From: Candidatus Hydrogenedens sp.
Lineage (GTDB): Bacteria > Hydrogenedentota > Hydrogenedentia > Hydrogenedentales > Hydrogenedentaceae
Direction of reading: 5' to 3'
Assembly: GCA_049968235.1 (NCBI GenBank)
Contig: JBMFRC010000009.1
Span: 1 to 64,000 of the forward strand
Length of the DNA: 64,000 nucleotides
Made by a program: the position numbers and the translations under genes
Notes under the pieces: generated by a model
Seen by the model: only the letters and a program-made list of their open reading frames with translations
Database searches by the model: none
What the model was told of the DNA's origin: nothing
Part shown: piece by piece, positions 6,574 through 46,264 of the stretch
How positions within the stretch are numbered: position 1 is the first letter of the stretch
Layout of the letters: the number at the start of each line of letters is the position of its first letter

Positions 6574-6876
6574 ATGTCTAAAAAAAAAATTAGTCGAGAT
6601 GAAATATATCATATTGCGGATTTAGCATATTTGTATCTTGACAATGAACAAGCAGATAGACTGGCTTCTGATTTGTCGGAAATAATAGATTATGTGGAGA
6701 AACTAAATGAACTATCCATAGAAGATGTAGAACCTATGATGCATGCAGTTCCGATGGAAAATATTTTAAGGGAAGATGATGTCCACATAACCATAACAAG
6801 GGAAGATGCTTTGCGTTGTGCTCCTCTACATGATGGCGAATATTTTTTGGTTCCGAAAATTTTGGAGGTGGATTAA
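6574..6876 (+). CDS. gatC: Asp-tRNA(Asn)/Glu-tRNA(Gln) amidotransferase subunit C
   Basis: GatC-like sequence (ISRDEIYHIADLAYLYLDNEQADRLASDLSEIIDYVEKL). Directly precedes gatA. RBS GAGGAAAA before ATG 6574. Confidence 0.85.
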   Translation: MSKKKISRDEIYHIADLAYLYLDNEQADRLASDLSEIIDYVEKLNELSIEDVEPMMHAVPMENILREDDVHITITREDALRCAPLHDGEYFLVPKILEVD

Positions 6877-6877
6877 A

Positions 6878-8356
6878 ATGTCTGAACATTGGTGGCAAAA
6901 AAGTGCTTCTGAAATAAGTGCATATGTAAGGAATAAAGAAGTATCACCGGTTGATGTTGTTCAAAGTTTTCTTGAGAGAATTCAACAGGTGGATAATAAA
7001 ATAGATGCCTTTACGCAGGTCTGGAGCGAGTATGCTATTCAACAAGCAAGAGCATTGGAAGAGAAAATCGTAAAGGATGGAGATTCTGTGGGACCCCTTG
7101 CGGGAGTGCCCGTGTCTATTAAGGAAGTAATTTGCACAAAGGAGGGGTTTACTACATGTGCTTCTAAAATTCTTGCGGGCTATCGTAGTCCTTATGATGC
7201 AACCGTTGTTGAGAAACTTTATAATGCGGATGCCATTTTGATTGGCAAGGTCAATATGGATGAGTTTGCCATGGGCTCATCTACGGAAAATAGTTCCATA
7301 AAATTAACAAGAAATCCATGGAATCTGGAATGTGTCCCCGGTGGATCTAGTGGAGGTTCTGCTGCGTCAGTGTCTGCGGAAGAGTGTGTTATATCATTAG
7401 GAAGTGATACCGGTGGTTCTATTCGCCAACCTGCATCTTTCTGTGGTTGTGTTGGATTAAAACCGACTTATGGGAGGGTATCCCGTTATGGTTTGGTAGC
7501 ATTTGCTTCTTCTTTAGACCAGATAGGTCCTTTAAGTAAAAATGTTATGGATAGTGCAATAACACTATCTATAATTGGTGGAAAAGACGAGCGAGATACT
7601 ACATCGGTTAATTTGCCTTTAACTGATTATGCTGAAAAAATTAAAAGAGGGATGGATAAAGTTTCGTTTCGAATTGGATTGCCTAAAGAATATTTTACAG
7701 AAGATTTAAACAAAGAGGTGAAAGACCTTATTATGGGTGCGGTGAAGGACCTTGAAAAACAGGGAGCGGAAATTGTAGAGGTGTCTTTACCTCATACCGA
7801 ATTTGCAGTTGCTACTTATTATATAATTTGTACCGCGGAAGCGAGTGCAAATTTAGCCCGTTTTGATGGGGTTCGCTATGGTTTCCGCCATACAGATTCA
7901 AAAAACATTATTGATATGTATAAACGAACCCGTAGTGAAGGATTTGGTCCCGAGGTTCAACGGCGGATATTGTTAGGAACTTATGTGTTGTCCAGTGGTT
8001 ATTATGATGCCTATTACTTAAAAGCCCAGAAGGTGCGTAAATTAATTACGCAGGATTTTGAGAAAGCATTTCAAAAATGTGATGTGATTATAGGACCCAC
8101 TTCACCTACCCCAGCTTTCCGTTTTGGTGAAAAGATACAAAATCCGTTAGAGATGTATTTGAGTGATATTTATACCATATCGGTAAATTTATCCGCATTG
8201 CCTGCAATATCTGTTCCGTGTGGGTTAACGCAAAGTGGTTTGCCTGTAGGTTTGCAATTTATTGGCAAACATTTTGATGAAGAATATCTATTACAGGTAG
8301 CGCATTTGTATGAAGTGAACAGAAGTCAAAAACTGGGAACGCCACCTTTAGAATAA
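6878..8356 (+). CDS. gatA: Glutamyl-tRNA(Gln) amidotransferase subunit A (amidase signature family)
   Basis: Amidase signature (GGSSGGSAASVSAEECVISLGSDTGGSIRQPASFCG). Start MSEHWW at 6878, overlapping the gatC stop. Confidence 0.9.
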   Translation: MSEHWWQKSASEISAYVRNKEVSPVDVVQSFLERIQQVDNKIDAFTQVWSEYAIQQARALEEKIVKDGDSVGPLAGVPVSIKEVICTKEGFTTCASKILAGYRSPYDATVVEKLYNADAILIGKVNMDEFAMGSSTENSSIKLTRNPWNLECVPGGSSGGSAASVSAEECVISLGSDTGGSIRQPASFCGCVGLKPTYGRVSRYGLVAFASSLDQIGPLSKNVMDSAITLSIIGGKDERDTTSVNLPLTDYAEKIKRGMDKVSFRIGLPKEYFTEDLNKEVKDLIMGAVKDLEKQGAEIVEVSLPHTEFAVATYYIICTAEASANLARFDGVRYGFRHTDSKNIIDMYKRTRSEGFGPEVQRRILLGTYVLSSGYYDAYYLKAQKVRKLITQDFEKAFQKCDVIIGPTSPTPAFRFGEKIQNPLEMYLSDIYTISVNLSALPAISVPCGLTQSGLPVGLQFIGKHFDEEYLLQVAHLYEVNRSQKLGTPPLE

Positions 8357-37513: not shown

Positions 37514-37915
37514 ATGGTCAATGGAATAGGAAAAATAAGTGCCGAAACAATGCTAATTTCTGCAATGAAAGTAGCAGAGATTAATCATCGGTATATTGCT
37601 AATAATATAGCCAATGCGGATACCCCTGGATATACGCAAAAGGAATTAGATTTTCAGAAATCTCTCAACGCCGTATTGCAAGGGCGAGGGGGTATCGTTC
37701 TCCGCACGAACCACCCTCGCCATATCCAGGTAGAAAAAGAAGGAGTTGTTGTAGAAAAGAGAAAGAATGTACTGAAAAACGATTTTAATTCTGTGGACAT
37801 TGATGAACAAATTACAAAACTAACAGAGAATACAGGAAAAGTTACTGTTTATACTGCATTGTTAGCCAAGAGATTTAATCAGTTAACAACCATTATTAAC
37901 GACTTGAAGAGATAA
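37514..37915 (+). CDS. flgB: Flagellar basal-body rod protein FlgB
   Basis: ANNIANADTPGYTQKELDF. Confidence 0.9.
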   Translation: MVNGIGKISAETMLISAMKVAEINHRYIANNIANADTPGYTQKELDFQKSLNAVLQGRGGIVLRTNHPRHIQVEKEGVVVEKRKNVLKNDFNSVDIDEQITKLTENTGKVTVYTALLAKRFNQLTTIINDLKR

Positions 37916-37924
37916 GATAATAGT

Positions 37925-38350
37925 ATGCGAGTTGAAGGAATTTCTGCATGGGATATAGCCCTTAGTGGTATACGGGCTCAACGGCTGAGAATGAATATTA
38001 TTTCAAATAATATTGCTAATGCGGAAACAACCCGAACTGAAAAAGGAGGTGGTCCATTTCGCAGGCAGATGGTTCTGTTAAAGGGTTATGAATTAGGCAA
38101 GAATGTAACATCAAAACAAGCAGGAGTAGAAGTAAAGTCTGTAATTTATGATATGTCCCCATTTAAAGAAGTGTATGAACCAGAACATCCCGATGCTAAT
38201 AAACAAGGTATTGTAAAATATCCGAATGTCCAACTTGCGAATGAAATGGCAGACCTTGTGTCTGCACAACGAGCATACGAGGCCAATATTGCGGTTTTTG
38301 TGGCAAATCGGCAAATACGACAAAGAGCATTAGAAATTTTACAAAGATGA
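37925..38350 (+). CDS. flgC: Flagellar basal-body rod protein FlgC
   Basis: ALSGIRAQRLRMNIISNNIANAETTRT ... SAQRAYEAN. Confidence 0.9.
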   Translation: MRVEGISAWDIALSGIRAQRLRMNIISNNIANAETTRTEKGGGPFRRQMVLLKGYELGKNVTSKQAGVEVKSVIYDMSPFKEVYEPEHPDANKQGIVKYPNVQLANEMADLVSAQRAYEANIAVFVANRQIRQRALEILQR

Positions 38351-38439
38351 GTAATATAAGATTTTTTTATGATAAAATAATGATATGATATAGAGTAGAA
38401 ACAAAAAATAAAAAGGAAATAATAACGAGGTAGTATCCC

Positions 38440-38757
38440 GTGGATAATATTGATTCTATTCACCAAATAGGTCCGGTAAAACCTAAAGTAGATATACCCT
38501 CTGTAAGTCCTATTAGGACTACACCGGTTGAAAATAAAACTTCTTTTAAGGATATATTAGTTGATGCTGTATCTGAAGTTCAGAAATTACAGGATGAAGC
38601 AGATACAACTATTAAAAAATTAGTTTCGGGCGAGATAAAAGATGTAACTGAAGTAATGGTGGCGGTTCAACGGGCAGATACTGCTTTTCAAACCCTGATG
38701 GCAGTTCGAAATAAAGTAATAACGGCGTACGAAGAGATAATGCGAATGCAAATTTAG
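38440..38757 (+). CDS. fliE: Flagellar hook-basal body complex protein FliE
   Basis: C-terminal VMVAVQRADTAFQTLMAVRNKVITAYEEIMRMQI. Confidence 0.85.
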   Translation: MDNIDSIHQIGPVKPKVDIPSVSPIRTTPVENKTSFKDILVDAVSEVQKLQDEADTTIKKLVSGEIKDVTEVMVAVQRADTAFQTLMAVRNKVITAYEEIMRMQI

Positions 38758-38859
38758 TATTTGACATGAGGTCAATACCCTGTGATTTGAAAAATCAAAT
38801 CCAGGAAAGAGCGGAGGTAAAAATTGAATAATTTCCCTAAAAAAATTTATTAAAAATTC

Positions 38860-38888
38860 TTGACATGATACACTATATATTGTATTAT
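38860..38888 (+). promoter_or_regulatory. Consensus sigma70 promoter (TTGACA-N17-TATTAT) internal to the flagellar cluster, upstream of fliF
   Basis: TTGACAtgatacactatatattgTATTAT. Confidence 0.5.
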
Positions 38889-38988
38889 ATAAACAAAAGT
38901 GATCTATTAGTTTGGTTTTGTTTGTTGTGTTACATTAAAATATATACAATAAGTTGATGAAAAATAAAAAGAAATATATAGTGTATTT

Positions 38989-40545
38989 ATGGAAACGATT
39001 TTACAATTCATAAATGGAATAAGAGAATTCTGGGCTAAGTTAACACTCAGTGCTAAAGTTATTATCGGGGTTTCTTTCTTTATAGTTTTTTTAGGTCTGT
39101 TATTAATTATATTCATTGGAGCACAGCCCCAATATACGGTTTTATCTGCGGGACTTTCGCCTCAAGAGATTTCTAAAATAACAGATGTATTATCCCGTCA
39201 GGGGATTCGATACCAGTTAGGAGACAACAATACAAGTGTATTAGTTCCCGTAAATGAAAGAAGTAATGCACAATTATTACTGGCACAGAGCGACTTGCCT
39301 GTTGGAAGACCTGTTCCTCCGGGCTGGGAATTATTTTCCACAACGGAATTAATGACCAATCAGTGGTTGCAGAATGTAAAATTTATGAGGGCTCTTCAAG
39401 GAGAGATACAAAAGCAGTTAAATGCTTTTGATTTTGTAAATGATAGTTATGTTCTTATCCGTGAAGCAAAAGAAGAGTTATTTGTGTCGGAACAAAAACC
39501 GTCAGAAGCGGCAGTTACGCTTGATATAAATAGACCCCTAACCAAACAGGAAATAAAGGCTATAGTTAGTATTGTAGACCATGCTGGCGGAGCCAATCTT
39601 CACCCTGGGAACATTACCATAGTGAGCACAAAAGGAGATGTTTTATACTTACCTCCCCAGTCTGGATTTGCTTCTCTTGCAAGTTCCAAATTGGAATTAT
39701 TGACCGAATGGGAGAAACAGCGAGAGATGAAAGTAATGAATAAATTGCGGGAATTAGGAGTTCGGGGGACTGTCTCCGTGAGTGCTAAGATAAACTTTGA
39801 TAGTTCTGAAGAGATAGAAGAAAAAGTAAGTGAAGGAACTGAAATAAGCACTTCAACGACAGAGACAAGCAGTGAGACGAACGAAAAACCACCTGAAGGT
39901 GCTCCGGGTGTAGTTGCTAATGTCCCTGAAGCCACAGTTCCTGGGGCTACTTCTACTAAAGAGACGACGACAGAGGAAATTGCAAACTATGAACCCTCTC
40001 GTTTAACGAGAAAAAAGAAGAAAGAAGGAGGAAATGTTGAGAAATTCCTTGTGACTGTTATTGTGGAAGGAGATTATCAAGAAACACAGGATGAGCAGGG
40101 TAATAAGAAGCGAAATTATATAGGTCTTTCCGAAGAGCGGAAGAAGATGTTTCAAGATTTTGTGATGTCTGCAGTAGGTGAAGGAGAAGTCCCCACAGAG
40201 GTATTGGTTTACGACCAGCCTTTTGGCATTTCGGAATTAGAGACCGGAATTCCCAAATCGGAAGAAATGCCATTCCAGTGGAGAACATGGCTGACACCCG
40301 TTACAGTCATTATTCAACTATTCGTTATTTTTGTAGTCTTTCTATTATTAAGGTCGTTTTTAAGGAGTACAGTAGTGGAGAAGAAAGAAATAGAAGAAGA
40401 AGAGGAACCGGTTGAGTTACCGGGTGTTTCCAAAGAAGATTTACGAAGACAAGAAGTGGCTCGGGAAGTGGCTCGGGTATCTATCGAGGAACCCGAAACC
40501 GCAGCTGCTTTAATTCGTTCATGGTTATCAGAAGGAGAAGAGTAA
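38989..40545 (+). CDS. fliF: Flagellar M-ring protein FliF
   Basis: N-terminal TM, YscJ/FliF fold motifs, charged S/T/E-rich linker, C-terminal TM and FliG-binding tail. Confidence 0.85.
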   Translation: METILQFINGIREFWAKLTLSAKVIIGVSFFIVFLGLLLIIFIGAQPQYTVLSAGLSPQEISKITDVLSRQGIRYQLGDNNTSVLVPVNERSNAQLLLAQSDLPVGRPVPPGWELFSTTELMTNQWLQNVKFMRALQGEIQKQLNAFDFVNDSYVLIREAKEELFVSEQKPSEAAVTLDINRPLTKQEIKAIVSIVDHAGGANLHPGNITIVSTKGDVLYLPPQSGFASLASSKLELLTEWEKQREMKVMNKLRELGVRGTVSVSAKINFDSSEEIEEKVSEGTEISTSTTETSSETNEKPPEGAPGVVANVPEATVPGATSTKETTTEEIANYEPSRLTRKKKKEGGNVEKFLVTVIVEGDYQETQDEQGNKKRNYIGLSEERKKMFQDFVMSAVGEGEVPTEVLVYDQPFGISELETGIPKSEEMPFQWRTWLTPVTVIIQLFVIFVVFLLLRSFLRSTVVEKKEIEEEEEPVELPGVSKEDLRRQEVAREVARVSIEEPETAAALIRSWLSEGEE

Positions 40546-40546
40546 T

Positions 40547-41584
40547 ACGGCACCGAAAAAAGATACAAAAGAACCTGAGAAACTAACAGGTCGAAAAAAA
40601 GCGGCAATTCTGCTGGCATGTTTGGGTCCAGAACATGCGAGTAATATTCTTGCTCATTTAAGAGATGCTGAAATTGACCGCCTCACGCTGGATATTGCTT
40701 CTCTGGGAACTATTGACCCGGAGATTAAGGCAAAAATATTTGATGAGTTTTTCCAGATGGTAGAGGCAAAACGGTTCGTAGCAGAGGGAGGAATTGAATT
40801 AGCCAAGGAATTATTAGAGAAATCCTTTGGTGCACAAAAAGCGGTAGAAATATTGAGTCGTTTACAAAGTTCCTTGCAGGAAGTTCCTTTTCAATTTTTA
40901 AAGAAAGCAGACCCATCACAAATCAGTAGTTTTATTCAGGAGGAACACCCTCAAACCATTGCATTAATATTAGCCCACCTCGACCCTAAAGTTTCTGCTC
41001 TGGCTCTCTCTTCATTACCTCCTGAGACACAAACCGATGTAATTTATCGTATTGCCACGATGGATCGAACCGCTCCTGAAATTATTCATGAGGTAGAACG
41101 GGTTCTGGAAAGAAAAATGGCAGCGGTTTTCACACAAGGATTTACTTTTGCTGGAGGTGTGAAAGAAGTAGCAGAGATACTCAATCTTGTTGAACGGTCT
41201 GCTGAAAAGAGTATTATGGAAAAATTGCAAGAAAAGGACCCGGATTTAGCAAATGAAATCAATAAATTAATGTTTACTTTTGATGATTTGATTTATGTTG
41301 ACGATGCAGGTATTCAAAAGGCATTGAGAGAAATTGATTCTAAGGATTTGGCTTTAGCTTTGAAATCATCTACGGATGAAGTCAAAGACAAAATATTTAA
41401 AAATATGTCAGAACGTGCTCGGGAAATGTTGAAAGAAGAGATAGAATTTATGGGTCCTGTTCGACTTAAAAATGTGGAAGAGGCTCAACAACGAATTGTG
41501 GCAGTAATACGCCGATTAGAAGAAGCAGGTGACCTTATTATCACAGGAAGAGGAGAAGGTGGAGGCGAAGAAATTCTTGTTTAA
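40547..41584 (+). CDS. fliG: Flagellar motor switch protein FliG (apparent non-ATG start: ACG at 40547 after RBS AAGGAG; conservative alternative TTG 40622)
   Basis: Conserved FliG N-terminus (APKKDTKEPEKLTGRKKAAILLACLGPEHASNILAHL) is in frame upstream of the ORF-track start, with no ATG/GTG/TTG available. Middle and C-terminal FliG motifs (MFTFDDL, EFMGPVRLK). Confidence 0.8.
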   Translation, partial: TAPKKDTKEPEKLTGRKKAAILLACLGPEHASNILAHLRDAEIDRLTLDIASLGTIDPEIKAKIFDEFFQMVEAKRFVAEGGIELAKELLEKSFGAQKAVEILSRLQSSLQEVPFQFLKKADPSQISSFIQEEHPQTIALILAHLDPKVSALALSSLPPETQTDVIYRIATMDRTAPEIIHEVERVLERKMAAVFTQGFTFAGGVKEVAEILNLVERSAEKSIMEKLQEKDPDLANEINKLMFTFDDLIYVDDAGIQKALREIDSKDLALALKSSTDEVKDKIFKNMSERAREMLKEEIEFMGPVRLKNVEEAQQRIVAVIRRLEEAGDLIITGRGEGGGEEILV

Positions 41585-41592
41585 CAATCAGG

Positions 41593-42303
41593 ATGGATAT
41601 ATTTATGTCTAAGGTTAAGAAAACACAAAAAGTTATTACTGAAAATACAGAAATAAAGTTTCTATCTCGTAATGATTTGAAAGAATTTCCGAAAGAAAAA
41701 GAGATTTCTGACGACCCTTTAAGCATGTATTCTCCGGAGGAATTGCGTGCTTTAGTGCTAGAACAGGCTCAACTGGAAGCGGAGGAAATGAAACGGAAAG
41801 CCTATGAAGAAGGATACAATGCAGGCAAATTACATGCTGAAAAGGAATTCCAACAATTCCTTGAGGAGATGAATAAAATTGTTCAAGAAAGTATAAAAAC
41901 AATTACTCAAGCAAGAACCAGCTTCCTTGAGCAATTGACTCCTCAAATCCTTAAAATGGTTTTTCAAATTTCTGAACAGGTAATCTCTGCTCAAATCCAA
42001 ATAAAGTCAGATATTGTTGAGGTTATTATAAGAGAAACATTAGAGGAATTAATAGATAGTCAGGAGATATATTTACATATTCATCCGGATGATTATGCAT
42101 TAATTGAAGCGGAAATCAAATCGCAATTGGAGGGTGGTAGCATAATGCAAAAGGTTATTTTTGTCCCGGATGAAACAATAGAAAGGAGTGGATGTATTGC
42201 GGAAACTAAAACACAATTTATAGATAATCAAATTTCTTCACGATTAAAACTAATCATTGAGAAGATAGTTAACCTTGCGAGGGAAAATGGTGTTGACATT
42301 TAA
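41593..42303 (+). CDS. fliH: Flagellar assembly protein FliH
   Basis: Position between fliG and fliI. FliH-like E-rich N-terminus (EAEEMKRKAYEEGYNAGK). Confidence 0.75.
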   Translation: MDIFMSKVKKTQKVITENTEIKFLSRNDLKEFPKEKEISDDPLSMYSPEELRALVLEQAQLEAEEMKRKAYEEGYNAGKLHAEKEFQQFLEEMNKIVQESIKTITQARTSFLEQLTPQILKMVFQISEQVISAQIQIKSDIVEVIIRETLEELIDSQEIYLHIHPDDYALIEAEIKSQLEGGSIMQKVIFVPDETIERSGCIAETKTQFIDNQISSRLKLIIEKIVNLARENGVDI

Positions 42304-43597
42304 GCCTTATATCGATATTGTTCAAGGGACAAAGCCATTTCAAATTTGTGGCAAGGTTAAAAATATTACGGGGTTAACTATTGAAGTTACGGGTCCAGAA
42401 ATGAGAGTTGGGGACCTATGCTATATATCATCAAGGGACAGAAAAAATCTGATACCTGTGGAAGTGGTTGGTTTTAGAAATGACCATTATCTTGTAATGC
42501 CTCTGGATGAGATTCAAGGGTTAGGACCGGGCTATATTTTAATTCCAACTTTTCAGTCACGAAATGTCCCTGTTGGAGATGCCTTTTTGGGAAGGGTTAT
42601 TGATGCTCTCGGTAATCCTATGGATGGAAAGCCTTTCCCTAAAGTTAGTGAAAAGAGGTCGCTATATACATGCCCTCCATCTGCAGTGTTTCGTCCTCGA
42701 ATAACAGAACCATTAGCGACAGGGATAAAATCCATTGATGGATGTACTACCTGTGGTAAAGGACAGCGTGTAGCAATTCTTTCCGGAAGTGGTGTGGGAA
42801 AAAGCAAATTGATTGGGATGATTGCACGGAACACCAATGCGGATATAAATGTAATCGCTCTTGTAGGAGAACGAGGGAAAGAAGTTCGTGAGTTTATCGA
42901 TTTAGATTTAGGAGAAGAAGGACTGAAAAGGTCTGTGGTTGTTGTGGCAACATCACACGAGTCTGCATTAAGACGAATTAGCGCTGGCTATGTAGCAACA
43001 ACAATTGCAGAATATTTTCGTGACCAGGGTGCAGATGTATTGTTGATGATGGATTCTATAACAAGGTTTGCTATGGCACAACGCGAAATAGGTTTATCTA
43101 TTGGAGAGCCTCCAACAACGAAAGGATATACACCGTCCGTGTTCAGTCTTTTGCCCCGTCTATTGGAACGGGTAGGGACATCAAAGAAAGGAACTATAAC
43201 AGGTTTTTATACAGTTCTTGTAGAAGCAGATGATTTGAATGACCCCATAGGCGATGCTGTTCGTAGTATTACGGATGGGCATATTTCTTTATCACGGAGT
43301 TTAGCATCTCGTGGACATTATCCTCCGGTAGATGTTCTGGAAAGTATTAGCCGTTCCATGCTGGAAATTACATCGTCGGAACATCGTGTACTATCAAATA
43401 AAATACGAAGTATTCTGGCTATTTATCGTGATGCCGAAGATCTGGTAAATATTGGGGCTTATGTTACAGGGTCAAATAAGGAGATTGATGAGGCGTTACG
43501 GCTTATGCCGAAAATAAGAAAATTTTTAATCCAGGATTTGTATGAAAAGGTTTCCTGGGACCAAATTTTACCCTTAATGAAGGAGGCACTTGGTTAA
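42275..43597 (+). CDS. fliI: Flagellum-specific ATP synthase FliI
   Basis: Walker A GSGVGKS, Walker B LLMMDS, F1/T3SS ATPase fold. Confidence 0.9.
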   Translation: MRGKMVLTFKPYIDIVQGTKPFQICGKVKNITGLTIEVTGPEMRVGDLCYISSRDRKNLIPVEVVGFRNDHYLVMPLDEIQGLGPGYILIPTFQSRNVPVGDAFLGRVIDALGNPMDGKPFPKVSEKRSLYTCPPSAVFRPRITEPLATGIKSIDGCTTCGKGQRVAILSGSGVGKSKLIGMIARNTNADINVIALVGERGKEVREFIDLDLGEEGLKRSVVVVATSHESALRRISAGYVATTIAEYFRDQGADVLLMMDSITRFAMAQREIGLSIGEPPTTKGYTPSVFSLLPRLLERVGTSKKGTITGFYTVLVEADDLNDPIGDAVRSITDGHISLSRSLASRGHYPPVDVLESISRSMLEITSSEHRVLSNKIRSILAIYRDAEDLVNIGAYVTGSNKEIDEALRLMPKIRKFLIQDLYEKVSWDQILPLMKEALG

Positions 43598-43602
43598 TTG
43601 TC

Positions 43603-44061
43603 ATGAATCCGAGAGAGTATCAACGATATGACCCTTTATTAAGAATTCGTAAAACACAAGAACAACTGTGTGCACAGAAATTGGCAGAAACAATGATGAA
43701 AATAAAAAACATTGAACAGGAAATTAAAAACACGGAGCAATTGCAAAAGGACTATATGTCGCAGGTTCAGACCATGCAAAAAAAATCGCATAAAGTAAAA
43801 GAAATATCAGATTCATTTGAATATATAGTATTTTTAGGGAAGCAAAAGGAGTTGCTAGATAAAAAGAAAGGGGAATTGGAAGATATAGCCCAAAAGCAGA
43901 GAAAAGAATTAGAGCAAATTATGATAGAAGAAAAAATGCTCCAAAAACTAAGAGATAATAGAGAAAGAGTTTTCCGTAATTGGGTGAGAAAGGAAATACA
44001 AAAGGACACAGATGATTTAAGTGGAACACGATTTTCAATGAAGAATAAAGAAGCCATATGA
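43603..44061 (+). CDS. fliJ: Flagellar export chaperone FliJ-like coiled-coil protein
   Basis: Position after fliI, ~150 aa, heptad-rich. Confidence 0.65.
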   Translation: MNPREYQRYDPLLRIRKTQEQLCAQKLAETMMKIKNIEQEIKNTEQLQKDYMSQVQTMQKKSHKVKEISDSFEYIVFLGKQKELLDKKKGELEDIAQKQRKELEQIMIEEKMLQKLRDNRERVFRNWVRKEIQKDTDDLSGTRFSMKNKEAI

Positions 44062-44099
44062 TTATAAATATATGGTATTGAAACATAGGAAACGAGAAT

Positions 44100-44675
44100 A
44101 TGCGATTTCTCTTGATTATTATATTAGCAATTATATCTTTTGTGGGGACACTGGTAGGAATATTAGCCGTTACAGGAAATCTATCCGGAGAATCTCTCCA
44201 GAAATTAGTTGCCCCTTCTCCTGCTACCCCAAAGGTAACAATACCCCAGCACAATATTCATGAAGATTCCATTGCTACATTGATTGAGCAGATTCAGAAG
44301 AAGGAATCTTTATTAAAGCAAAAGGAAGAGGAAATAAAGAAAAAAGAGGAAGAGATAAATGCAAAATCTCAAGAATTGCAACAAATGCAAACGAAAATAG
44401 AGTCCATACAAAAAGAACTGAGTTCCAAATTAGGGGAGGATAAAAAAGAAAAGGCAGTGCAAATGCAAGCCATTGCAGTTACGCTTAGTGGTATGAAGCC
44501 GGATAAGGCGGCAGAACGATTGAAAACAATGAATCCAGATGAAATTGCAGAAATTCTTTCTTATGTCAAACCTAAGGAAAGAGGGAAAATTGTAGAAGCC
44601 TTAGATGCTCAATTAGCAGCACAGGTACTTCAAGCTCTGCAAAAAGTGCAACCTCCTTCTCCTCCCTCCTCATAA
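44100..44675 (+). CDS. YlxF/MotE-like flagellar-operon protein (N-terminal TM, coiled coil, MgtE-N-like C-terminus)
   Basis: Same position and size as B. subtilis ylxF between fliJ and fliK. TM + K/E-rich coiled coil. Confidence 0.55.
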   Translation: MRFLLIIILAIISFVGTLVGILAVTGNLSGESLQKLVAPSPATPKVTIPQHNIHEDSIATLIEQIQKKESLLKQKEEEIKKKEEEINAKSQELQQMQTKIESIQKELSSKLGEDKKEKAVQMQAIAVTLSGMKPDKAAERLKTMNPDEIAEILSYVKPKERGKIVEALDAQLAAQVLQALQKVQPPSPPSS

Positions 44676-44767
44676 AATTCATTCCTTAATAAACTAATCT
44701 AATTCGAATTCAAAACTTATTCCTTGATTTGGTTGAAATATTAACTCTTTTTTTAAGGAGAGGATTT

Positions 44768-46264
44768 ATGATTGATAATATAATGAATGTTCTTTTCCCT
44801 GTAGTGTCCGGGGAAATCACAAAAACAGAACCAGGTGCTCAGGAGAATACAAACCCTAATGGGAGCAATTTCGGGCAGGTCCTGAGTATATTGATGGCTC
44901 AAATGGGATTAATAGCAATACCCGTTCAACAGGATGGTAATACTTCTTTGTCAGAAACAGAAATCCATTCAGATGCACAGGTAAATAATGTCTCTTCATT
45001 TATTACAAACCCGAATAATATAGAATTGCCTTCTACCATAGAAGGTACGGTTACTCAGGAACTAGTTCAATTACCGGATTCTGGTATCGAAATTGATTCT
45101 ATTACAGGACAGGAAGATGTGCAAAACAAAAGTTTACCTGTTGTGGATACAGATGCAAAACAAGATAATCCTATTATTTATGAGTGTCAGGATGAATTGT
45201 TATTGCAATTAGGTACTAATATAGAACAGAGAATTGCAAAAGTACAATCTGGACAACCTAAGACAAAACAATCGGGTGTGGGAATAAAAACTTTAACATC
45301 TCTTAATTCCTCACAAAAAGGAAATTCATCCATTGGTAGTGAAAATGTAATTACACCGATGGATACAGAACAAATGGGCAAAATAGAGACGGTAGAATTA
45401 CCTCAAATTACAGAAAAATTACACATTAAGAATATAGGATTATCTACCATTTTGAATCCTGAAGAACAGCAAGAACAGGTCCTCTTAAAATCAGGACAGG
45501 TATCAAATGATAAAAACATTCAGAATGGTGTGATGGGGACCCCGTCAAATACACAACAAAAATATACAGATATACTGGCAGATTTAAAACACGATTTACC
45601 AGAAAATATGGATGTAGAAATGAAAGGAAATATATTTTCTAAAGTTCCGGAAACGAAATTAATTTCTAATTCCGGTGAACAAACCAATTCAAGCTCTCAA
45701 CATAAATCTGATTTGCCAAACTCAAATCCTCAATTAGGAATTTTCACCGAAAAGTACATGAAGATAGGAAGTGAAGGAGCCTCTGCTAAAACACCTTCTG
45801 TAATCCCGGCAGAATCCAAAGATGTTGTTGCTACATTATCCTCATTGAGGGCTGTTCTGACAGAACAGATAAAGTTTGCAGTTCGCTCAGAGACAAAAAC
45901 GATTACTGTAAGATTAGAACCTGAGTCGTTAGGGCTCATGGAGGTTAAAGTTCAGGAATATTCCGGTAAAATTGGAATTCAACTTACTACTTCTAACAAT
46001 GAAGTCCATAAAATTCTAACACAAGGTCTACCTCAATTAAGGGAAGCCCTGAAACAGGAAGGTATTTTTGTTAAGGATGTACAGGTTATTTCCACAGGGA
46101 CAGCAAGCCTTATGTTAAATCAGGATTTCAGTTCACATTCCTTTTCAAGGGAACTTCACATAGAACCTGTCTTATCTCATTTTAATAGTAACACGCAACA
46201 AATAACAGAGGAAATAAAACCCTTAACAGATTACCATAATGGAACATTAAGTTTATGGGTATAG
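44768..46264 (+). CDS. fliK: Flagellar hook-length control protein FliK
   Basis: C-terminal Flg_hook domain (ITVRLEPESLGLMEVKVQEYSGKIGIQLTTSNNEVHKILTQGLPQLREALKQEGIFVKDVQV). Start ATG 44768 after RBS AAGGAGAGG. Confidence 0.75.
   Translation: MIDNIMNVLFPVVSGEITKTEPGAQENTNPNGSNFGQVLSILMAQMGLIAIPVQQDGNTSLSETEIHSDAQVNNVSSFITNPNNIELPSTIEGTVTQELVQLPDSGIEIDSITGQEDVQNKSLPVVDTDAKQDNPIIYECQDELLLQLGTNIEQRIAKVQSGQPKTKQSGVGIKTLTSLNSSQKGNSSIGSENVITPMDTEQMGKIETVELPQITEKLHIKNIGLSTILNPEEQQEQVLLKSGQVSNDKNIQNGVMGTPSNTQQKYTDILADLKHDLPENMDVEMKGNIFSKVPETKLISNSGEQTNSSSQHKSDLPNSNPQLGIFTEKYMKIGSEGASAKTPSVIPAESKDVVATLSSLRAVLTEQIKFAVRSETKTITVRLEPESLGLMEVKVQEYSGKIGIQLTTSNNEVHKILTQGLPQLREALKQEGIFVKDVQVISTGTASLMLNQDFSSHSFSRELHIEPVLSHFNSNTQQITEEIKPLTDYHNGTLSLWV

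Follow-up and report, generated by a model that had tools for sequence, protein, structure and literature searches.

An ACG codon beside the fliF stop as the probable, conserved initiation codon of fliG in Hydrogenedentota

The flagellar gene fliG of Candidatus Hydrogenedens sp. raises a simple question, namely which codon starts its translation. The window that we analysed is the whole stretch of 64,000 nucleotides (nt) at positions 1–64,000 of contig JBMFRC010000009.1 (assembly GCA_049968235.1). In it fliG lies directly 3′ of fliF, and after an in-frame TAA at 40511–40513 its reading frame has no ATG, GTG or TTG until a TTG at 40622. A sequence-only reading of the same DNA had proposed that fliG starts at an ACG behind a good Shine–Dalgarno (SD) sequence, possibly by coupling or reinitiation. 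The layout described there (TAA at 40543–40545, ACG at 40547–40549, AAGGAG 9 nt away and TTG 40622 as the first canonical codon) is correct in every detail, and the proposal is supported by 31 orthologous junctions with ACG. From comparative sequence analysis we consider it very likely that the ACG at 40547–40549 is a genuine, selectively kept, weak start of fliG, probably used by ribosomes coming straight from termination on fliF. The features of the junction are as follows.

38989–40545, + strand: fliF, encoding the flagellar membrane and supramembrane (MS)-ring protein, 518 codons plus TAA (open reading frame (ORF) list, Pfam)
40511–40513, + strand: in-frame TAA that bounds the fliG ORF on its upstream side (translation of 40511–40700)
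40532–40537, + strand: SD-like AAGGAG within the last fliF codons, 9 nt before the ACG (sequence)
40543–40545, + strand: fliF stop codon TAA, 1 nt before the fliG ACG (sequence, ORF list)
40547–40549, + strand: ACG proposed to initiate fliG, in the frame of the FliG ORF (sequence, orthologous junctions)
40547–41584, + strand: fliG, encoding the flagellar motor switch or cytoplasmic (C)-ring protein, 345 codons plus stop if started at ACG (Pfam, PDB matches)
40550–40621, + strand: fliG codons 2–25, the N-terminal segment before the first canonical start (pN/pS, structure alignment)
40622–40624, + strand: TTG, the first canonical in-frame codon of fliG, judged not to be the start (not conserved)

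The identity of both genes is clear from their products. That of fliF matches the Pfam families YscJ_FliF (1.6e-38) and YscJ_FliF_C (7.5e-19); that of fliG, whose stop codon is at 41582–41584, carries FliG_N (1.2e-40), FliG_M (1.4e-36) and FliG_C (4.5e-47) in this order and is matched by FliG chains in the PDB, down to 7.7e-79. The junction reads TCAGAAGGAGAAGAG TAA T ACG GCA CCG AAA AAA GAT, and translation from ACG 40547 gives TAPKKDTKEPEKLTGRKKAAILLACLGPEH. Between the TAA at 40511–40513 and the ACG stand the codons TTC GTT CAT GGT TAT CAG AAG GAG AAG AGT AAT. None of these 11 is a canonical start or a better near-cognate codon, AAG belonging to the poorest near-cognate class.

A comparison of orthologous fliF–fliG junctions, the check that the sequence-only reading had suggested, finds ACG at the same place in relatives. 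Junctions were gathered from a scan of one genome per GTDB species and from a metagenome scan, and for each we determined the position of the fliF stop, that of the conserved FliG motif (R/K-K-A-A-I-L-L) and every candidate start; L-numbers below denote loci and P-numbers public proteins of this comparison set. The main set comprises 47 distinct junctions, each with a FliG sharing at least 63% identity with that of the window. An in-frame ACG stands 1, 3, 4 or 5 nt past the fliF stop, without a usable canonical start, in 27 of the 47; ATC (L019, +3) and CTG (L102, +4) take the ACG position in one junction each, and 18 junctions have a canonical ATG, GTG or TTG at −11 to +66 nt from the fliF stop. 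All ACG-type junctions have GAGGA, AGGAG or AGGAGG 5–12 nt before the ACG. As a prospective test of the ACG prediction, we fetched the DNA of four Hydrogenedentes FliGs with N termini shortened in NCBI (P0021, P0025, P0045 and P0099), and all four had ACG at +4 after TAG. This brings the number of distinct ACG junctions in Hydrogenedentota genomes and metagenomes to 31 (27 + 4), and that of near-cognate starts to 33 (31 ACG, one ATC and one CTG), every one of which lies 1–5 nt past the fliF stop. Such a recurrence of ACG at one place goes well beyond chance.

At several loci the frame itself restricts the choice of start. The fliG frame of L011, L012, L014, L016, L017, L020 and L021 opens at the fliF stop, one codon before ACG, so that nothing upstream can be the start, and in the metagenome junctions L090 and L097 it is likewise closed by the fliF stop one codon before ACG. 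Throughout the Hydrogenedens clade ACG is the sole start-like codon before the conserved RKKAAILL motif. In canonical-start lineages of the set, fliG starts at the homologous upstream site, 13–20 codons before the motif. The two scans also returned about 60 junctions from Bacillota, Armatimonadota and other phyla, all of them with canonical starts. The comparison shows the ACG to be the only conserved candidate start, and the product is predicted to begin at or very near it.

The ACG is shared well beyond the immediate relatives of the window, whose FliG is 96% identical to that of Candidatus Hydrogenedens terephthalaticus. Two other metagenome-assembled genomes at NCBI, GCA_049971155.1 and GCA_049969095.1, encode an identical FliF on contigs that differ from the window by 2 and 1 nt, and both read TAATACG; species whose DNA is only 74–87% identical to the window have the same junction with ACG. 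The presence of the same ACG in these two independent assemblies and in the more distant species refutes the sequencing error that the sequence-only reading had allowed for, and a recent ATG-to-ACG substitution is contradicted by its occurrence in lineages whose FliG is only 65% identical. Among ACG-bearing FliGs that value is the minimum pairwise identity (median 73%); they form six single-linkage clusters at 80% identity and, in a neighbour-joining tree of FliG, occur throughout the crown of the phylum, where lineages with canonical starts are nested between them.

The ACG is invariant in 16 representative lineages whose G+C content (GC) is 38–65%, and its flanks are unconserved but for a tendency to C at the middle base of the next codon. 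Were it an ordinary threonine codon, the probability of finding ACG in all these lineages, taken as the product of its shares in the threonine codon usage of their fliG genes, would be about 9e-7, a figure that is overstated because the lineages are treated as independent. The ATC and CTG substitutes encode other amino acids, yet each is one mismatch from AUG, as ACG is. The pattern is clear: the triplet appears to be kept as a codon and not as a threonine. Taken across the junctions, the comparison shows a feature that is old, specific to fliG and kept across very different base compositions.

Four further observations concern these junctions. The organisms with ACG junctions are uncultured. 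The fliF stop is TAA or TAG in 31/31 ACG-type junctions (within L003–L021, L031, L083–L106 and L163–L167) and never TGA, even at 57–65% GC, and it is TGA in 4/18 canonical-start junctions (L018, L093, L095 and L096); the absence of TGA may reflect chance or shared ancestry. About 410 nt before the real junction, L014 (OW818658.1) has a second sequence resembling a fliF 3′ end and junction (agttggatgagtcaagacgatgatTAAgctggatcaccc), with GGA replacing ACG, which may be a local duplication or an assembly chimera. From position 2001 of L086 (Ga0116168_1000079), which is about 96% identical to the window, the ACG-started fliG is open for only 106 codons, probably through a frameshift or stop in the assembly.

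The stretch of fliG between the ACG and TTG 40622 carries independent marks of being coding. Because the Pfam FliG_N profile (positions 1–104 of 104) begins at residue 12 of the ACG-started protein, a start at TTG 40622 (residue 26) would delete 14 profile positions. Residues 11–105 align to residues 4–98 of Thermotoga maritima FliG_N in its complex with FliF (5tdy_B), residues 11–25 matching 4–18 of 5tdy_B and 3–17 of Salmonella FliG (8umd_B), and residues 12–337 align to 3–327 of 8umd_B. By Pfam and PDB alignment, the complete FliF-binding N-terminal domain is obtained only with the ACG start. Among nine fliG sequences of the Hydrogenedens clade, the non-synonymous (pN) and synonymous (pS) differences were as follows.

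Codons 2–25 (ACG to TTG 40622): pS 0.51, pN 0.073, pN/pS 0.14
Codons 13–25: pN/pS 0.03
Rest of the fliG gene: pN/pS 0.076

The same nine sequences have no indels in codons 2–25, and this segment is under purifying selection. Its pN/pS values, the onset of FliG_N at residue 12 and the alignment to 5tdy together show a segment that is, from its coding signature, evidently translated. The TTG at 40622 is replaced in close relatives by TTA (L003), ATT (L005) or CTT (L007), and an exact look-up of the TTG-started FliG N terminus found no protein on record. A truncated FliG beginning at that TTG, another option of the sequence-only reading, fits neither the lack of conservation of the codon nor the constraint on the 24 codons before it, and the orthologues neither start at a downstream TTG nor lack the N-terminal segment. 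The second fliG codon usually has the form NCN and so encodes Ala, Ser, Pro or Thr, residues typical of the second position of N termini that undergo methionine excision.

Within the window fliG is the exception. The other gene models, out of roughly 55, start at ATG (44), GTG (7) or TTG (4), close to the opening of the ORF, whereas fliG has the longest start-free stretch (36 codons) and the only SD-preceded ACG. A further scan took in about 330 kb on both strands, made up of the window and all Hydrogenedentota loci, and looked for the end of a long ORF followed within 8 nt by an SD-preceded codon X, at least 8 start-free codons and an ORF of at least 100 codons. With ACG as X there were 26 matches, 26/26 of them at fliG, and each of 12 control codons gave 0–4 matches. 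A relaxed scan of the window returned no further ACG-start candidates.

How might so weak a codon be used? We propose that initiator formylmethionyl (fMet)-tRNA, with the anticodon CAU, would read the ACG with a mismatch at the middle position, while the AAGGAG provided by the last Glu/Gly codons of fliF would position the ribosome. The ribosome starting FliG would be one that is just finishing FliF, either by termination–reinitiation or by hand-over to the adjacent SD, and the weak ACG would keep independent initiation low, so that the amount of FliG made would follow that of FliF. Of the near-cognate starts 33/33 lie at +1 to +5, against −11 to +66 for canonical starts, which suggests that the restarting ribosome is one that terminated on fliF. 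Three points are what we infer from these patterns: that fMet-tRNA decodes the ACG, that fliG depends on the translation of fliF, and why selection would keep the arrangement.

The spacing fits that of coupled genes. The fliF–fliG distance, +1 nt in the window, ranges from +1 to +5 over the 31 ACG junctions, inside the limit of about 10 nt taken as a criterion for coupling; a range of −8 to +10 nt is regarded as predictive of termination–reinitiation, hardly any coupling is left at about 20 nt, and subunits of complexes are over-represented among closely spaced pairs (PMC10666635). The FliF–FliG complex forms through the two protein ends encoded at the junction (5tdy). It is also well established that the C terminus of FliF binds the N-terminal domain of FliG in a 1:1 interface. 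A stronger version of the proposal, quite possible although we advance it only tentatively, is that the ACG would be an obligate re-initiation codon kept by selection, too weak for free 30S subunits and usable after FliF release. Each FliG would then be made beside a fresh FliF C terminus, supplying the halves of the interface 1:1 and favouring their co-folding.

Measurements in Escherichia coli indicate what such a codon can do. Native initiator tRNA initiates at ACG with methionine at about 0.7–1% of the AUG level, with chloramphenicol acetyltransferase activities of 48 versus 7314 and 78 versus 7838 for ACG and AUG, and ACG is about 5-fold weaker than AUU, AUC or AUA (PMC3643588). Elsewhere ACG is among the codons that initiate at 0.1–1% of AUG, with N-terminal methionine confirmed by mass spectrometry, and it is absent from the annotated starts of 79 surveyed genome and plasmid sequences (bioRxiv 10.1101/063800).

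Searches for additional elements at the junction were negative. RNA folding of six junctions revealed no stable or unusual structure (z-scores of −0.29 to +1.49 versus shuffles), and an Rfam scan of the whole window gave no family above threshold. Coupling through the unmasking of an SD/start hairpin is not supported, given this shuffle-level folding and the lack of an Rfam match. A tRNA scan of the window found no unusual initiator tRNA, its sole call being a 95-nt tRNA-Arg.

Several observations weigh against a selectively kept ACG start coupled to fliF. ACG is one of the weakest near-cognate codons in E. coli, and several nested lineages have exchanged it for ATG or GTG, with at least 8 changes between near-cognate and canonical starts by parsimony; given these replacements, the weak codon can be dispensed with. 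The neighbour-joining tree is built from one protein and is only indicative, and the lineages are not statistically independent. A TTG at +7 in L009 (OY782877.1; ACG-ACG-TTG) and an ATG 13 codons past the ACG in L163/L164 (GCA_019637335.1) are possible real or second starts, so these loci may have two starts or be in transition toward a canonical one. SD-like 4-mers, moreover, precede 20 of the 55 window gene models (36%), compared with a background of 11%.

Among the rival explanations, the serious one keeps the ACG as the start and dispenses with coupling: a 30S subunit would bind AAGGAG directly and initiate at a low rate, the proximity of the stop merely reflecting an SD that is built from the acidic C-terminal codons of fliF. 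The SD-like motif 5–12 nt before the ACG in all ACG-type junctions would fit this, as would the Glu-rich ends of FliF in canonical-start lineages too, and a start at about 1% of AUG in E. coli might suffice for flagellar proteins needed in low copy. FliF and FliG, however, are needed in approximately equal amounts, which is established knowledge, and unless coupling made up for it, a start about 100-fold weaker for fliG alone would upset this balance; nor does independent initiation account for 33/33 near-cognate starts lying within 5 nt of the stop when canonical ones spread from −11 to +66. We regard it as rather unlikely, though it deserves to be taken seriously. A true start further downstream, at TTG 40622 or at a CTG, ATT or ATC chosen by annotation pipelines, would leave FliG without its first helix. 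Public gene calls take this course (P0001, MACLGPEH; P0022, MKGRRKAAILL; P0002, 311 amino acids), and CTG, ATT and ATC are allowed by genetic-code table 11. These codons are nevertheless not conserved, and CTG, ATC and ATT sit in the most conserved helix. The segment that would be excluded has a pN/pS of 0.03–0.14, is free of indels, includes FliG_N positions 1–14 and aligns to structured residues of FliG_N in the FliF complex, and canonical-start lineages begin 13–20 codons before the motif; a downstream start is accordingly very unlikely.

Recoding at the fliF stop, by a +1 frameshift or readthrough, would yield a FliF–FliG fusion and require no separate initiation of fliG. The SD-like element 2 nt before the last sense codon and stop in the window recalls the +1 frameshift site of prfB, where an SD-like element is similarly placed before the stop, and FliF–FliG fusions can assemble into rings (PDB 8z4d, a fusion chain). 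In related lineages, though, the fliG frame relative to fliF is +1 (offsets 1 and 4), 0 (offset 3) or +2 (offset 5), so no single frameshift or readthrough mechanism fits; there is no conserved slippery codon, and the invariance of the ACG would be left unexplained, which makes recoding most improbable. C-to-U editing of ACG to AUG in the mRNA, as in plant organelles, would account for strict ACG in preference to other near-cognate codons, and organelle editing dominates the literature on ACG start codons. A single C-to-U change, however, would convert neither the ATC of L019 nor the CTG of L102 to AUG, no conserved flanking sequence could serve as a recognition element, and no bacterial system of comparable, site-specific C-to-U editing of mRNA is known to us; there is very little chance that editing is the explanation. 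As for a sequencing or assembly error or a decaying pseudogene, the ACG is one base from ATG and fliG is uncalled in one public assembly (L001), but the same base recurs in more than 30 independent assemblies from different studies, and the ORF is intact at 345 codons with a pN/pS of 0.076. The likelihood of such an artefact is close to negligible.

Known systems place a fliG start at ACG in context. Among bacterial cases the conserved AUU that starts infC, encoding initiation factor 3 (IF3), comes closest, and the nearest mechanistic frame is termination–reinitiation at tight gene pairs. AUU starts both infC and pcnB in E. coli and relatives. Like the fliG ACG, the infC AUU is a near-cognate codon one mismatch from AUG, conserved among orthologues and preceded by an SD, and it has been kept since weak, factor-sensitive initiation is useful, a rationale to which the fliG case may be likened. 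Unlike AUU, ACG mismatches at the middle position, is about 5-fold weaker in E. coli reporters and falls outside the table 11 starts; fliG is a flagellar structural gene and not a translation factor, IF3-type autoregulation is without evidence there, and its codon adjoins a preceding stop. Coupled pairs such as trpB–trpA, or those studied in PMC10666635, resemble fliF–fliG: both genes lie on one strand and encode interacting subunits, they are −8 to +10 nt apart, and the upstream gene contains an SD. Known pairs of this kind, in contrast, use ATG, GTG or TTG, typically in ATGA or TAATG overlaps, and the fliG ACG never overlaps the stop.

Outside bacteria, ACG start codons occur in eukaryotic viruses, for VP2 of adeno-associated virus and C′ of Sendai virus, where, as might hold for fliG, a weak ACG sets a low relative amount of one component; these depend on eukaryotic scanning with Kozak context and not on an SD-positioned bacterial ribosome. 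Plant chloroplast and mitochondrial genes such as psbL and ndhD have genomic ACG starts that are edited to AUG by factors of the pentatricopeptide repeat (PPR) type. They share with fliG the genomic ACG at the start position and bacterial-type translation, and they differ in being edited, whereas the ATC and CTG variants of fliG argue against editing. In Salmonella FliF–FliG fusions (PDB 8z4d/8z4g), linkage of the FliF C terminus to the FliG N terminus is compatible with ring assembly and involves the same interface as the junction; those fusions are covalent, whereas fliF and fliG of Hydrogenedentota are separate, with a stop codon and a variable frame.

The junction lies in a flagellar operon in which the neighbouring genes listed here have canonical starts.

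37514–37915, + strand: flgB (ORF; canonical start; Pfam on the near-identical locus L001)
37925–38350, + strand: flgC (ORF; canonical start; Pfam on the near-identical locus L001)
38440–38757, + strand: fliE (ORF; canonical start; Pfam FliE on the near-identical locus L001)
41593–42303, + strand: fliH (canonical start; Pfam FliH 2.1e-20)
42275–43597, + strand: fliI (canonical start; Pfam ATP-synt_ab 2e-88 and T3SS_ATPase_C 3e-23)

Precomputed Pfam families on the upstream genes of L001 are Flg_bb_rod, Flg_bbr_C and FliE. The gene order in the window is flgB–flgC–fliE–fliF–fliG–fliH–fliI–fliJ–(MgtE_N protein)–fliK, the MgtE_N-domain protein being encoded at 44100–44675 (+) between fliJ and fliK. 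The order of the operon (37514–46264, +) is the same as in the Bacillus-type fla/che operon, and the nearest FliG relatives outside Hydrogenedentota in our scans were from Bacillota and Armatimonadota. With TTG 42275, its first canonical codon, as the start, fliI shares 29 nt with the end of fliH, and the real start may be the ATG four codons past that TTG (product MRGKMVLTF...). Elsewhere in the window, the ARAGORN tRNA-Arg (anticodon GCG, 95 nt, 7341–7435, +) falls inside ORF 6806–8356, a full-length Pfam Amidase (E 3e-157); it is most likely a false positive, because it lies within the amidase gene and has no Rfam tRNA match.

The ACG has consequences for annotation, being outside the start set of genetic-code table 11. 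In GCA_049971155.1 (L001 3076–4134, equivalent to window 40546–41604) no fliG is called, and FliG is truncated to internal CTG, ATC or later codons in P0001, P0002, P0006 and P0022, at 275–333 amino acids versus about 345, so that the deposited proteins lack part of the FliF-binding domain. Gene finders and the NCBI Prokaryotic Genome Annotation Pipeline (PGAP) thus miscall fliG, and wrong conclusions on motility can result. In the literature we found no report of a natural, let alone conserved, bacterial ACG start, nor a description of fliF–fliG coupling or of such a feature in Hydrogenedentes flagella, though coverage was incomplete and the lack of reports is no proof of absence. ACG is not mentioned in PMC11497404, and PMC4648390 deals with Xenopus oocytes and has no bearing on the question.

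Should the ACG prove to be an obligate re-initiation codon, fliG would provide the first description from Bacteria of a natural ACG initiation codon with phylogenetic conservation, and would exemplify the choice of a start codon for enforcing coupling. A phylum-wide case of this kind would mean that natural bacterial initiation uses ACG, and the junction would allow one to study, in a clean natural setting, what makes so weak a codon productive, with coupling and IF3 discrimination as points to examine. For the flagellum of Hydrogenedentota, the junction divides the two halves of the FliF–FliG interface, which suggests a testable link between the order of translation and the assembly of the ring.

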